A stretch of DNA of 63,024 bases, counting the filler, from Asterionella formosa (Eukaryota), in the NCBI GenBank assembly GCA_002256025.1. It is 28 parts of 28 records of this genome, joined end to end, with 100 filler letters (N's around TTAATTAATTAA, not from the genome) between each part and the next. Parts side by side here need not be neighbours in the genome. Positions count along the whole stretch, not along the records: positions 29,363 to 31,516 come from NKIB01000317.1; 27 more parts are not named here. The stretch is one strand, 5' to 3'. The translations under genes and the position numbers were made by a program. Below, piece by piece: positions 12,486-42,782 of the stretch (position 1 is its first letter; every line of letters begins with the position of its first letter). The notes under the pieces were generated by a model. That model was not told the DNA's origin. It searched no databases and saw only the letters and a list, made by a program, of their open reading frames with translations.

Positions 12486-13463
12486 GGTTCCTGCATTTGA
12501 ACCCCTAGGCAAAAATTAAAATATTGCTTAGGGTTGCCGAAATTCCCTGGAACTAAGAACTTTTATGTGCTAATTTGAATATCAATGATTCCGTTTGAAA
12601 AATTCAAATGAGTGGAAATTTGCGCGTACGTATATAGATTCCATTTCAAATGCATAAAATATGTAATGATAGATATTTCATCGCTGAATGTTTTATATTG
12701 CTACTCTACCGATAGTATACCTACTCGTATCATAAATATGTTTCACATGCACGACCCGGCGGCTGCAAAATATATTTGAATGTGCAAACTATCGGTACTA
12801 AGGTACTGGTTAGCGTGCACTACCATTTACTATGACGAATGATGATCAGTTACCTGGAACCGGTAGGTCTACCCGGTTCTCGGTATTCCTACTCCGTACG
12901 GATTCCGGTATACGGGTAAACCTACCCGGTACTCGATATTCCCACTCCGTACGGATACCGGTATACGGGTAGGATCGGCCAACACCCAAGAAAATGCTTC
13001 ATGTGTATCCAGTGTGGCCGGCGTGGGATTGCACGACCTCGCAAACCGTGCCAATCGAACGGATGTAAGGATAACCAATCAGAATATGATTATTACAGCG
13101 GGCAATTACATTGGAACTTTTTGTACACGAGATTTTACGACTACAAATTTTAGCACAAGACTACCATTCCGATGATGACGTTTCGGCGATTAGTGATTCT
13201 GATTCCGACGTTTGGGTGACCGTTGAAAAGGCCGATATTGTCGAATTTTTGGACGACGATAGCTCAACGTTGGCAGGGTTTGAAGAAGAGTTAAGTACAT
13301 AGGTAATCTTCATATAGCCCCAGAAGTTAACTTTCGGCGAGAAACTGCAGAAAGGAACTTCGGTTTTTTTACTAGGCCAAATAAACGAGTTAGCCCGGTA
13401 AAATCCACTATTTTCAGCATAGTTAAAAAACCGAAGTTCCTTTCTGCAGTTTCTCGCCAGATC
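12486..13463 (+). mobile_element. Non-autonomous Kolobok-like element (left TIR plus internal and right-arm sequence)
   Basis: TTAA|GGTTCCTGCATTTGAACCCCTAG (23-bp TIR); 13259-13463 matches the right arm at ~21831-22035. Confidence 0.8.
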
Positions 13464-18143: not shown

Positions 18144-19812
18144 CTACATTTCACACTTGCACTTGAATCCCCTCATAAAGGCTCCAGGAACCATGAGTTC
18201 ATCAGGCGTCAGGGGAACACATCGACAATCACTTGGCTTAGGACCTGGAATTTTTGCAATTTCATGTAAATATAGACCCAGCACCTTGATGGCATTCATC
18301 ATGTTGAGTTTATTATACTTTTCATTTTGTGAGTGTGCCATGTCATCACACGCCCCTACTGGAAGAAGCAACACATTCATACCAGTAGCATCTTCTATTG
18401 CTCCAGCAATGGGAATAGATCCACCTTCACGAGTCATGTCAGGTGCTTGACCAAAGACACGTTCAATTGCCTTGCATGCTGCTTGGTAGTTGGGATGATG
18501 AGGATCTGATACCCAAGCCTTTGCGCCGTGGAGCATAGATAACTCCATCTTGTTGGGAGAATTCAACTTGAATATTGGAGTGATGGGAGTCATTGGAGGT
18601 TTGTGAGAAAGAATTAATATGTGCTGAATGGAAAAATTTGGTTTGTCTCCTTACCTTTTGGAACTCTTTCTCAATGTGATCCTTGACCAAAGCTTCAATT
18701 TTTTGGGGGTCTTGATGAGGAACCAATCGCAAGCTGAATTTTCCCGTGACCTTGGCTGGAATCACAGTCTTGGCTCCAGGCCCTGAGAAAGCTCCCTCAA
18801 TGCCATGCAAACTCAATGTAGGGTACCTCCAACGATGCAAAAGGATGTCTTTCTTGTTGTCGAACAATAATTTTTCAGAAAAGATTTTGACTTCATCCTT
18901 GTATTCTTCCACATTAAAATCAAGATTTTCGTACAAAGCTTCTTCTTCTGCTGTCAAAAGTTTGACATCGTCCATAATCCCATCGACAAGAATTGTCCCA
19001 TCTGTATCAACGAGAGTCCCCATGAGTTTGATCAAATCAGTCATTCCTTCATGAACTGATCCTCCAAAGGATCCTGAATGCAAATCCTGATGCGCTCCTT
19101 GCACCGCAAGTTGAAAGTATGCCATACCACGAAGTCCGTAGGTGACACATGGTTTCGTCTTGCCCAACCAATAATTGTCACTAATACAGAAGAAATCTAC
19201 ATCTTTCAGAAATTGAGTTGCCTCGCTTTGAATCCATTCAAATAGTCCGTCACTCCCACTTTCTTCCATTCCCTCATATACAATTTTGATATTGACTGGC
19301 AGTGGCATGCCCAATGCCTGATGCGCTTCCACGACCCACAACCACGACAGGGCAGGTCCCTTGTCATCTGTGCTTCCTCGGCCATAGAGCTTCCCATCTC
19401 GTTCTGTGAGTACAAATGGCGGACTGTCCCATCCGTCCATGGACGCTGGTTGTACATCTAAGTGGCCATAGACACAAACCGTCTTTGCGTTCTTGTCTGA
19501 GGATTGAAATTCTCCCGCCAAAATGGGCGGCAATGGACGGTCCACTGTAGAGGCCGGATTCGCTCGAAGTTCGGCAGCTCCGCTCAGACGCAGAATGTGA
19601 TCTTTGGTCCATTCCATCATGGTACAAATGTCGCTCAAGTGTAGGTCCAACTCAGCCGAGACGGATGGAATTGCCACAGCTTGGGCGAGACGTTCTTGAT
19701 ACAAGGCGGCATGTTGGTCAATGTAGTTCATGTAAGCCTCTACAAACTCGTCGTTTGCGACACTGCTAGAAGCGTCACTACCGGTAGCACTGATACCAGT
19801 ATGGCTTGTCAT
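18144..19812 (-). CDS. CNDP2: Cytosolic non-specific dipeptidase (M20, CNDP2/DUG1 family), two exons, intron 18567-18654
   Basis: YGHLDVQPA, LYGRGSTDDKGP, EGMEESGS, DLHSG, REGGSIP, AHSQNEK motifs; in-frame GTAAGG...CAAG intron. Confidence 0.95.
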
Positions 19813-29689: not shown

Positions 29690-30730
29690 CTCACCATGAT
29701 GCATATCTCTGTTTGTCTTTGTTTGTCTTGCTATTCCAATGATCAACCAGCAATGACTTCATCACTGAATCCTGGTTGTTCTTGGTGACAGTTAGCACTA
29801 CCTCAGGTACCATTTGTTCCATTTTCCACGGGCTTGTTGGATACCTGAAATTGATTTTCAGTGACGAAGGGGAAAGAATAGGAAGGAACATGACAAACAA
29901 TAATGAGACCAACAAATCAAGGCACAGAAGGAGATCATTGCCCATTAGCATAAATCCAAAGCACAAGTTTTTTGATATGAAGAGACAATTAGTCAGAATT
30001 GCCAAAACCTTGGCGAGGTGAATGTCTTCAAGTTTCAATGAAAGTACAAGGATAGGAGAACAACATCTACAAATTTCAACATAAAGTAGAAGAAGGATAT
30101 GATCCATTGACAGATTGAAAAAGGTTGCAGGAAGAAGGTAAAATAAAAATTGGAAGTGAAATGAAGTGAGACAATTTATCAGTGTGTCTTGGAAGGGAGG
30201 GTTAATTGATTTTTGTGTCAATGAAGAATGTCTTGTGTCAATCAAGGATACATTGTGGATGAAAGTTTTGACGATCTTCTGGCAAGCCGAAAACATCAAG
30301 GCTAGCTGTGCCTGAGCCTGTATCATTCAGCTGGACAATCGCGCCACACCAAGCTTGCAACTTGCAGGTTTGACTGTTAAAATTGATCTCAGGCCAAGGA
30401 TATTGCCATCGTGAATGTCATTGGCAATGCTTGTGATGTTGTTGAAAGTTGTTTCAAGATGGTGACTAGTAAGAATACAATAATAGTGTAAGTGTATTAA
30501 CAAATAGATAGAATACAATAATTGCTGTTTTTTTGTGTATCCATAAAATATTTGAGACTGTTGCGCCAGATGTACAAGGAGGGTAAAGGACTATGGGAGA
30601 TACAAGGCACCAAGTGGGTTCCCCCCCTACAAGAAGCATGTGCCACCTTCTTAGGCAGTCAGAGTTTCCACTAATGCTGCATCTAGCTAAGAGACAATCA
30701 CCTTTCGGAAATGGTGAATGGGGACTCACC
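29690..30730 (-). pseudogene. Decayed 3' region of a non-LTR retrotransposon
   Basis: Fragments (IQAQAQL..., LLVDHWN) loosely resemble the C-terminal region at 58631-59607; many stops. Confidence 0.3.
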
Positions 30731-30913
30731 TATGCTAACAAAGCTAGGCAAGCACAGGTCTTTTTGGCAGGTAGCGCAATGAAAGGCTGGCTATAAAACA
30801 TACTATCCTTTTATATACCATGTGTATTATGATTTCATGTAACGGAAATATCTCCTTACCAATAAAAAGAGTTTAAATATATTAATTAATTGCAATTGAT
30901 AAATCCGGTACTC

Positions 30914-31003
30914 ATCAGGAGATTCCGGGTTCGAATCCCGGGCAGGTTTCTTAGCCCTAATCCCCCTGACTTGTTGGCCCAATGGTAAGGCGCCTGACTA
31001 CGG
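30914..31003 (+). tRNA. Circularly permuted tRNA-Arg(ACG): 3' half 30914-30949, 18-nt spacer, 5' half 30968-31003
   Basis: 3' half ATCAGG-AGATT-CCGGG-TTCGAAT-CCCGG-GCAGGTT-T lies upstream of 5' half GACTTGT-TG-GCCCAATGGTAAGGC-G-CCTGA-CT-ACG-G. Rejoined halves give a 72-nt cloverleaf. Confidence 0.88.
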
Positions 31004-31008
31004 TCGGA

Positions 31009-31017
31009 TTTTCTTTT
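31009..31017 (+). terminator. Pol III terminator-like T-runs after the permuted tRNA
   Basis: TTTTCTTTT directly after the trailer helix. Confidence 0.65.
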
Positions 31018-31789
31018 ATAAAATTTTATTTCTTCGTCGCATTCTGAACTGGTCGATTTTCCATCACTACCGGTATACCGGATAGATGGTGTTCCGATCG
31101 GATTTCTGAGTTTCTTTTCCTAGCTTTGCTTGCTGATGTAACCTGGTCCTCCTCCCAGGTTGTACGGACCTTGGAATGCCGCCGATATAGTCTATCAATA
31201 TGTATACGTTCGTAAATAAAAAACAATAGAATTTGCATGCAATGAGGATAAGAAAATAGTCTACGAAACGTTTTAAGTAAACAACCGGTATTATTAGGTA
31301 GTCAGGAAGAGTGCAATTGATGTATACAGGGTCCATCTTCGCTCCATGCTTTACGTTGGCTACAGTCAGAGAAGACTTAGGCATAGAGGACGGTATTATT
31401 CCTATCAAGTGAACATGTACGATGTGAGCATCGCTATGTCGAGCAGTAATCGACTGCAACTTTCGACTCGGGAGTATCGACTTCGCAGATTAATACCTTT
31501 TTCTATCAGGAAATGTNNNNNNNNNNNNNNNNNNNNNNNNNNNNNNNNNNNNNNNNNNNNTTAATTAATTAANNNNNNNNNNNNNNNNNNNNNNNNNNNN
31601 NNNNNNNNNNNNNNNNGTCCGGAATGAAAGTTGTTCTGGTAAGATTACTGCGCTATTTTGACGGCTATATAAGCAACGCTACTGATAACTCACACTGATC
31701 TTCCTCTACATTCAATTGACATTGCAGCAAACCCTTTCAGTGAAGGAGCATTCGCATGCCGTTCCGAATGAGCAGGCTTTATTTCATTA

Positions 31790-40629: not shown

Positions 40630-41640
40630 CACCAGATGGCTGTGGGGCACCACTGGTGGTGGGCACCCTTAACATCAACGGGCTGCAGCGGAAAAAAACC
40701 GATCTTCGGTTTCTGTTGCAACAAACCCGGTGTGATGTTATGGCGGTGCAGGAGACGCTGCTCCGATCAACGGATTGGCAGCTTCGTTTGCCAGGTTACC
40801 ATTGCCTCACAGCAATGGGGGACCTGACAGCGTCGCAGCGAGGTGTGGCAATACTGGTGTCGCCCAAATTCAACTGTACCCCAGTTGGTAAGGCCACACC
40901 ATTTTGGACTTTTGCGAGAGTCTATGGGGCCACCCTCTTGAGGCCTATTCTTGTGGGAACAATCTATGTCCCATGCAGAGCGGATCGCATCCGAGTGCTC
41001 AGGGCCCTGCCCCGAGCCTTGGACGCTCTACATCGGGAGTTTCCAGAAGACCCAATTGTGATGATGGGAGACTTCAACATGAAGATGACGGAGTTGCAGA
41101 TTCTGATGGGACCGTGGCGGCTTCCCTTTCGGGTGTTACCCATCCGAGGGGGGGCCTCCACTCGCCAAAGCCGGCGGGAGGGACAGCCAACACCTGCCAT
41201 TGATTTCATCACATATTGTGGTGACACAGTGGCGGCTGTCCCCCCTGCCAGGGTCCTCGACACATGGGATATTTCGGACCACTTCCCAGTTGTTGCGGAC
41301 CTACCTGGGCTTACCAGAATCCCAGATATGGGGATTGCCCCACCACGGCCGGAATCACTGTACCGGCGGATTGTGATGGAGGAGAAGGAACTCAAAGTAA
41401 CCGTGGCTAATAGTAACTATTGGCAGCCACTAGCTGACTCGCTGGAAGAGGACCTGGAGGATGTAATCGAGTGTTCACATTCACTTGAAAACCCCACCAG
41501 TTACCACCAGGAAAGGTTGGATGGTATGGCCAAGAAGTTCACTACAACATGTCACCAGGTGGCAGAGGACCTGAACCTCCACCAACGGGTGGCGGGACAA
41601 AACCCACCAAGAGTGACAGGACAGGTATGTCGGGCAATTG
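40630..41640 (+). mobile_element. APE-like endonuclease domain of a non-LTR retrotransposon, truncated
   Basis: GTLNINGL, AVQET, RGVAILV, IYVP, MGDFN, IDFI, ISDHFPV motifs. Confidence 0.9.
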
Positions 41641-42782
41641 ACACTTCAGCAACTTCTTCACCCACATTGTTTGAAAACTCATCTGGATCCCAGATCTCGT
41701 CAATGTAGAGTTCCGCCTCTGCACCATTCACAACAAGTAGCCGTTTCCCCACAGGATTTGTACCTGGTTGTAGATTACGTACAAGTGCGTATGCCATCTG
41801 GATCCGTTGTGTCAGCTTGCCTGGTAAGAAACCCAGTAGACTTGGCTCAAAAGCCGCCCAAAGAAGGACTGGATGTGCCAGCGTTAGTGCCACATTCCAT
41901 GGAAATTCCATGCATATATTTGGCACTACATATTGCAGAAGCCAATCATCAGACGCACCGCTTTCTTCATTCAGAACATACTTGCATTTGGCGTCTGGAT
42001 AAGGTAGCTCAACATCAATGTAAGTGTCAACTTGTTCTGTGCGCCGTTTCCAGCGTCCACGGAAGGCAACATCATCCCAGGAGCAGCCATTTCAACGTGC
42101 ATGTGTTGATGGGTACTTCCGAAGGCTGTGTGTGCCAATCAAACCATTGTTCATTCGTTTGAACTCACTAGCTACTTCCCATACATCATCACGCAGAATT
42201 GTATAGGCCTTTCTTTTTGCATTTGATGGATTGTTGGTTTGTAGCGAAAATACTCATGGATTTTAGGGTGATGCACCTTGTTCCATACATTCTGTCTCAA
42301 GATGAACAGCCAAGGCAAGGAGAACGCAATAGTCTTGCAACATGGATGCAATGAGTACCTGGTTTGGTGCCTCCCTCTCTTCTTTAGCGTTTTTGTCCAA
42401 CACAGCTTGGCCATCAGAGTGAAAGGAAATCGAAGATTTGCAGTTAGGTTTATTTTTGTTAATTGCACACAATCGTCAATTCGGCCAACCATGTGGAATT
42501 GAAAGGCACACAGTGCAGGCAACTGATACCGATGGATACTGTTCTTGAATGAATGAAGGATATGCATTGTATTGGAGAACTCTTGGGATTTTAGGGGTCG
42601 CCTTGTTGCTTGTGATGGTTTCCCTTGTCTGCGCACTTCCTTCTTTTTTACTGCTTTGATGAGGTTATTGACACGCACAGACCTTGTTGGATTGCCACTG
42701 TGCATAATAGCATTCCAAGTGGAGAGTCGATTTGGCATAAAATACGACAATGCCTTTTTGTAGTATTCCAGGGAAGAAGACC
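41641..42782 (-). mobile_element. Crypton-like tyrosine recombinase pseudogene
   Basis: GNPTRSVRVNNLIK, FQFHMVGRIDD, KNAKEEREAPNQVL, and GTHSLRK and YPDAK remnants as in stramenopile Cryptons; several frameshifts. Confidence 0.7.

Follow-up and report, generated by a model that had tools for sequence, protein, structure and literature searches.

Organization of the permuted tRNA-Arg(ACG) locus

The window, by which we mean the whole stretch of 63,024 nucleotides that was analysed, contains on its plus strand the two halves of a tRNA-Arg(ACG) gene in reversed order. Direct reading of the sequence places tRNA positions 38-73 (36 nt, ATCAGG...GGTTT) at 30914-30949, upstream of positions 1-37 (36 nt, GACTTGT...CTACGG, with position 17 absent) at 30968-31003 on the same strand. 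An 18-nt spacer at 30950-30967 joins the discriminator to position 1. Each tRNA half occurs once in the window, so the locus is a solo permuted unit, with the following features.

30872-30889, plus strand: TATA-like AT-rich element, TTTAAATATATTAATTAA, a putative upstream Pol III promoter lying 25-42 nt ahead of the 3' half
30901-30913, plus strand: leader, with AAATCCG (30901-30907) in the outer helix, GTAC (30908-30911) in the central helix and TC (30912-30913) in the bulge
30914-30949, plus strand: 3' half of tRNA-Arg(ACG), comprising the 3' strand of the anticodon stem, the variable loop, the T arm, the 3' strand of the acceptor stem and the discriminator U
30950-30967, plus strand: spacer of 18 nt without a T4 run, putatively removed by RNase P and tRNase Z
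30968-31003, plus strand: 5' half of tRNA-Arg(ACG), comprising the 5' strand of the acceptor stem, the D arm, the 5' strand of the anticodon stem and C32 U33 A34 C35 G36 G37
31004-31017, plus strand: trailer, with T31004 in the bulge, CGGATTT (31005-31011) in the outer helix and T-runs at 31009-31012 and 31014-31017

The locus has a promoter-like motif upstream and a T-stretch downstream, neither of which is present in the spacer. T-runs begin at 31009, 31014 and 31024, and the putative Pol III terminator overlaps one strand of the outer helix. The promoter role proposed for the element at 30872-30889 is modelled on the red alga Cyanidioschyzon merolae, as described in the available text of a 2014 review (PMC3978253). 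An earlier note on this DNA had given the same boundaries for the two halves and the spacer, with the break at 37/38, and had pointed to T-runs downstream and AT/TATA-rich DNA upstream; the coordinates hold, and the two flanking signals are read from 31009 onward and at 30872-30889, respectively.

Joining the two halves by their coordinates yields a 72-nt cloverleaf that ARAGORN assigns to tRNA-Arg(ACG). The joined sequence carries U8, A14, G18G19, A21, U33, G37, R15:Y48, G53 T54 T55 C56 and C61. ARAGORN is permissive in this setting, as a brute-force join test found 453 other cut-and-join versions of the locus that it also accepts, with many different anticodons. All seven acceptor pairs form at the position fixed by the D arm, for which our own arithmetic gives a chance of about 0.375^7 with G-U pairs allowed. 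Moreover, a contiguous homologue on a metagenome contig (L003, 627-698) scores 54.0 bits on the Rfam tRNA model (cut-off 29), and the joined sequence departs from it at 4 of 72 positions. In genomic order, ARAGORN finds no tRNA gene in the window, and Rfam gives no tRNA match there, either at the gathering threshold or at E-values up to 5. That standard tRNA scans miss the locus fits a permuted gene, as the earlier note had anticipated.

The acceptor stem of the window copy contains three G-U pairs (G1-U72, U7-G66 and U4-G69), and its discriminator is U73, features that had been raised as a caveat against the gene. They are indeed present, but most of them do not indicate decay. The pairs G1-U72 and U7-G66 are found in every member of the family described below, and the window's subgroup has the U discriminator. 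Since all three are shared with the contiguous L003 gene, they are lineage traits. The third pair, U4-G69, is also found in two relatives, L008 and L012.

The leader AAATCCG is the exact reverse complement of the trailer CGGATTT, and together they form an outer helix of 7 bp. Next to it, leader G30908-T-A30910 lies opposite C35-A34-U33 and C30911 lies opposite C32, forming a central helix of 3 bp plus a C-C mismatch that falls at the position of the anticodon-intron pair. The bulges, TC/A38 on one side and G36 G37/T31004 on the other, put both exon ends in 3-nt bulges, and the spacing from the outer helix to the anticodon stem is that of a canonical bulge-helix-bulge (BHB). Perfect leader/trailer pairing, GTA against U33-A34-C35, a C facing C32 and 3-nt bulges on both exon boundaries had all been described before, and all are read in the sequence. 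A strict BHB is imperfect at the window locus, with three of the four central pairs formed. When ViennaRNA was constrained to the cloverleaf, the leader/trailer helix closed the window precursor and the 3-bp central helix stayed open; the unconstrained fold is not a cloverleaf (-33.6 vs -31.6 kcal/mol). A 7-bp Watson-Crick run in any register between a 20-nt leader and a 22-nt trailer arises in 87 of 2000 shuffles, whereas such a run at the single canonical register is far rarer, at about 1e-4 by our own arithmetic from base composition.

Conservation of the permuted family

Relatives were sought in metagenome contigs with a pattern consisting of a T loop, followed within 27-57 nt by a D arm and an anticodon arm ending in ACGG. 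The scan returned 16 matches in 15 loci. The 3' half precedes the 5' half in 15 matches from 14 loci, and in these the sequence past G37 is not the 3' half; the one other match, L003, is the contiguous Arg(ACG) gene. After near-identical records had been merged (L002 with L014 and L015, L004 with L009, and L006 with L010), 11 distinct permuted units were left, which make 12 together with the window. The family encodes eight distinct mature sequences, all eight called Arg(ACG) by ARAGORN when joined, and its spacers are 4-18 nt long. The solo permuted layout is present with intact halves in 13 loci other than the window, in at least six unrelated flank contexts. Prokaryote genomes totalling 596 Gb gave no match to the same pattern, and neither did viral contigs.

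Two of these loci differ in organization from the solo units. On the minus strand of L008 (about 591-789), two permuted Arg(ACG) units stand in tandem, and the middle of this array, which runs from the 5' half of the first unit through a 19-nt link to the second unit's 3' half, is an ordinary intron-containing tRNA gene that scores 43.6 bits on the Rfam tRNA model. The contiguous gene of L003 lies in a tight cluster (548-775) of tRNA-Val(AAC), tRNA-Arg(ACG) and tRNA-Gln(UUG), separated by spacers of just 5 and 4 nt.

Flanks of 600 nt around the metagenome loci were also examined. Of the 72 stop-to-stop flank frames of at least 55 aa at the 14 metagenome loci, 47 were scanned (most tRNA-overlapping frames left out), and none of these matched Pfam. 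Between the syntenic loci L007 and L009, substitutions are spread evenly over the three codon positions (19/19/15) and the alignment has 71 gap columns, so the flanks look non-coding.

Covariation was analysed on a 12-row alignment of the distinct units. No change is seen in the D stem, the anticodon stem or its loop in this alignment; 12 of 12 units keep CUACGGA in the loop, an unaltered anticodon stem and every tRNA invariant. The acceptor stem, which forms between the separated halves, is 98.8% paired and shows changes on both sides at three pairs (2-71, 5-68 and 6-67); one pair of the T stem covaries as well. The covariation score of the whole structure is 0.256, compared to 0.125 in shuffles, none of which reached 0.256 in 500 trials, and at most 0.101 in slid controls. 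Among five syntenic loci (L001, L005, L007, L009 and L011), 712 of 720 pairwise tRNA positions are identical, the sole differences being a compensating change from C5-G68 to G5-U68, while the spacer and 200-nt flanks are identical at 1732 of 4405 columns (39%). These comparisons indicate that both halves are under strong purifying selection and that the permuted layout is maintained in relatives.

The leader/trailer helix varies more within the family. The nearest relative, L006/L010, differs from the window at one position of the mature tRNA and also has an 18-nt spacer, which matches at 11 of 18 positions. Its leader and trailer form a 9-bp helix in the same register, with a sequence unrelated to that of the window (0 of 2000 shuffles). 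This turnover of the helix sequence with pairing kept is the best evidence that the leader/trailer helix may be selected in the window's lineage. Across 13 leader/trailer sets, duplex energies of matched combinations are only marginally more stable than those of mismatched ones (p = 0.059), and leader/trailer pairing was not upheld as a rule for the whole family. The covariation in relatives looked for by the earlier note was thus found for the closest pair and is marginal for the family. Outer helices are weak in L002, L004, L007, L011 and L012, and those of L001 and L013 are not above shuffles. At the register of the window, pairing in the family amounts to 59.5% for the outer helix and 50% for the central one.

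Members of a second subgroup (L001, L004, L005, L007 and L011) share a conserved GTAG with perfect pairing to C32-C35, one base farther from the exon, and their outer helix is often slight. With this shifted central pairing and slight outer helix, the family shows relaxed BHB forms. Such forms have been described for algal permuted tRNA genes in the available text of PMC3978253.

Putative expression signals were examined across the units. A run of at least four T lies within 30 nt of G37 in 11 of the 12 distinct units; it is lacking in the leading unit of L008, where the 19-nt link to the following unit takes the place of a trailer. By regular expression, a TATA-like motif was found between -55 and -25 in half of them (6 of 12).

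A different account of the locus would treat it as a non-functional relic, in which tandem duplication of an intron-containing tRNA-Arg(ACG) gene left behind the first copy's 3' half and the second copy's 5' half, with the pairing inherited from the old intron and the working gene located elsewhere. It draws on L008, which holds exactly such a tandem around its intron-containing middle gene, on the introns reported for tRNA-Arg genes of Phaeodactylum tricornutum (PMC3531208, available text), and on the third G-U pair and imperfect central helix of the window copy. A relic should decay, yet the solo layout recurs with intact halves in unrelated contexts, and the tRNA of the syntenic loci is nearly identical in flanks that have largely diverged. 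Changes in the acceptor stem are compensated, the helix sequence has wholly turned over between the window and L006 with its pairing kept, and T-runs stand directly past the trailer in nearly all units. On this balance we consider a relic unlikely. The window locus is instead, with high probability, a functional and circularly permuted type II (37/38) nuclear gene for a diatom cytosolic tRNA-Arg(ACG).

The best Rfam match over 30901-31014 is YrlA (RF02553), at 22.8 bits, which raises the idea of a non-decoding tRNA-like RNA with permuted topology, like the tRNA-like domain of YrlA, rather than a tRNA precursor. YrlA is bacterial and has no decoding anticodon arm. Its model aligns here because it shares with the window locus the rotated order of T arm, closing stem and D arm. 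The match misses the gathering threshold of 69 bits, so membership in YrlA was rejected, and its E-value, 0.017 for a search of 501 bases, is 2.2 for the window as a whole. Furthermore, the anticodon loop, anticodon stem and tRNA invariants are unchanged throughout the 12 units, and the contiguous homologue in L003 is an ordinary tRNA gene inside a tRNA cluster. A non-decoding RNA of this kind is therefore very improbable, and we retain the tRNA gene as the reading of the locus.

RNA and DNA contigs and the host

Three metatranscriptome runs and one DNA run were compared with the locus, all as assembled contigs, and no joint of any kind was found in the four. This comparison is neutral on processing and on a second gene, since assembled contigs drop rare or short molecules. 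The RNA contigs that touch the locus are colinear with the genome only. Record 12 of RNA library X8 is colinear over 30921-31470, with 47 and 503 letters on either side of 30967/30968 and two differences in the spacer, and record 10 of X7 covers 30968-31269. These RNA-library contigs are independent data, and they confirm that spacer, 5' half and trailer are adjacent. Record 1 of X12 is a 3.8-kb transcript of the neighbouring region with an end near 31038, and the RNA contigs at the locus could be read-through from it. No RNA contig covers 30770-30917 among the assembled contigs of the three metatranscriptome runs.

In the DNA run X3, two contigs lie on the locus, one ending at 30942 and the other starting at 30974, so that 30943-30973 is uncovered. 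Compared to the window, the X3 sequence has a 26-nt insertion behind 30788 and a T-to-A change at 30872, the first base of the TATA-like element. These differences are strain variation just upstream of the gene, and the covered parts of the tRNA are identical. Another DNA contig of 838 nt (X3 record 7) shares 30974-31003, from U8 to G37, and then runs on into another T-rich trailer; it probably represents a second Arg(ACG) locus of that sample, either permuted or interrupted. In addition, a short segment 150 nt upstream of the gene (30718-30762) reaches a word depth of 800-900 in X3, compared to about 35 around it. The same segment is found in RNA run X7, is single in the window and matches no Rfam model.

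An error of assembly in this scaffold, or the collapse of two ordinary genes that stood in tandem, is barely credible: the window does contain 2376 N and the X3 contigs stop and resume within the locus, but X8 record 12 runs across the spacer into the 5' half and trailer, each half is single in the window, and L006 and L010 are separate metagenome records with the same layout and a homologous 18-nt spacer.

The window has a G+C content of 36-46%. An open reading frame for a cytosolic dipeptidase (18463-19812, minus strand) has diatoms as its best named relatives, with 62-68% identity. In a tree of 20 rows, this protein falls within the diatom clade, with the bolidophyte Triparma outside (support 97/93), and groups weakly with pennate diatoms (88/89). 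The sequencing runs that contain the locus are labelled as freshwater or lake metagenomes. Judged by the dipeptidase relatives and tree, the host is a diatom, which bears out the stramenopile host named in the earlier note.

Proposed maturation, known systems and origin

By analogy with C. merolae, on which the pathway is modelled, we infer every RNA step of a maturation that would pass through a circular intermediate. Pol III would start near 30900, some 25-30 nt past the TATA-like element, and stop in the T-runs at 31009-31017. The resulting linear precursor of about 110 nt would contain the leader, 3' half, 18-nt spacer, 5' half and trailer. Pairing of the leader with the trailer (7 bp), supplemented by the weak C32-C35 central helix and by the anticodon stem, would present the exon ends in 3-nt bulges with BHB-like spacing. 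The tRNA splicing endonuclease could then cut before A38 and after G37, and tRNA ligase could join G37 to A38 to give a 90-nt circle. Cleavage by RNase P before G1 and by tRNase Z after U73 would remove the spacer. Finally, CCA would be added, and A34 would presumably be deaminated to inosine.

So far, permuted tRNA genes have been an oddity of some red and green microalgae, a single nucleomorph and a single archaeon. The closest counterparts of the window locus are the type II genes of C. merolae (Soma et al. 2007, as given in the available text of PMC3978253), which likewise place the 3' half first and have the junction at 37/38. Leader and trailer pair in a BHB-like manner there, as they may do at the window locus. 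Both also have a TATA-like element upstream, a T-stretch downstream and a spacer without such signals; the C. merolae spacers are 7-74 nt long, compared to 18 nt here. They differ in that C. merolae is a red alga for which RNA intermediates have been shown, whereas the present locus belongs to a diatom, its RNA intermediates are predicted, and its central helix has a C-C mismatch.

The permuted genes of Ostreococcus, Micromonas and the Bigelowiella natans nucleomorph (Maruyama et al. 2010, via the available text of PMC3978253 and PMC13578239) are almost all of type II (37/38); their spacers measure 5-64 nt, and the DNA upstream of them is AT-rich. However, these are genes of green-lineage hosts, and the listed arginine case is Arg(TCT), in contrast to Arg(ACG) in the window. 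In Auxenochlorella, added by a 2025 paper (PMC12636532, available text), the halves are likewise reversed and were noticed through an incomplete tRNAscan-SE set, but this is a trebouxiophyte green alga and not a diatom. For Thermofilum pendens (Chan et al. 2011, PMC3218864; PMC3978253, both in their available text), BHB cleavage and circularisation have also been proposed, although it is an archaeon and its junction lies at 59/60 (type IV) instead of 37/38. The intron-containing tRNA-Arg of P. tricornutum (PlantRNA, PMC3531208, available text) shares with the window locus the host group, the amino acid and the interruption at the canonical 37/38 site, but its halves are in normal order.

The 2014 review brings together in its Table 1 a set of 34 permuted tRNA genes, found in C. 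merolae, Ostreococcus, Micromonas, the B. natans nucleomorph and Thermofilum, and, in the text available, neither Arg(ACG) nor a stramenopile is among them (PMC3978253). A 2026 review (PMC13578239) and PlantRNA 2.0 name, in their available portions, only red and green algal cases and the nucleomorph. Our literature search, which covered the accessible main texts, found no report of a permuted tRNA from a stramenopile or diatom. What appears to be new at this locus is the stramenopile host lineage and the Arg(ACG) isoacceptor, while the type II design is known.

The forms in the family, namely the contiguous gene of L003, the L008 tandem with its intron-bearing middle and the solo permuted units, are those expected if an intron-bearing gene was duplicated in tandem and then lost its outer halves. 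In terms of sequence, the L008 tandem looks like an intermediate of this route to permuted genes. An intron-containing tRNA-Arg of the P. tricornutum type, as in the middle gene of L008, is likely the ancestral state. We further propose, tentatively and with slightly more doubt than confidence, that diatoms, and perhaps other unsampled protists from which the metagenome loci derive, make the inosine-bearing tRNA-Arg(ICG) from a permuted gene, possibly the sole gene, which would have originated by tandem duplication of an intron-containing gene. Its origin would be independent of the red and green algal cases, because the contiguous, tandem-with-intron and solo permuted stages stand side by side in the family. 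The three forms also make the tandem-duplication model of permuted-gene origin directly testable.

A conserved family of permuted tRNA genes in diatoms, which are major primary producers, would widen the range of such genes to the stramenopiles. A prediction that follows is that RNA can be circularised by the tRNA splicing machinery of diatoms; if the permuted-gene origin of tRNA-Arg(ICG) is true, the stramenopile splicing endonuclease and ligase would routinely circularise pre-tRNA. The tRNA-Arg(ACG) is needed to decode CGU, CGC and CGA, and standard tRNA scans of diatom genomes would list it as missing.

Within the window, a search for T arms and acceptor pairing with brute-force joins, a method blind to breaks within a T arm, picked up a single T arm, at 30925, and no other permuted tRNA, and a permissive Rfam scan gave no other tRNA-like match. 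A bacterial promoter and terminator scan of the window has no bearing on a eukaryotic Pol III gene. A weak match to the plant microRNA precursor model MIR9481 at 13344-13448 on the minus strand (36.1 bits vs a cut-off of 130, E 6e-4) probably reflects no more than a hairpin. An open reading frame at 40656-41708 on the plus strand carries an endonuclease/exonuclease/phosphatase domain (Pfam E 3.6e-14). Another Pol III gene, a solitary 5S rRNA gene, lies at 5929-6047 on the minus strand, with an Rfam score of 94.7 bits.
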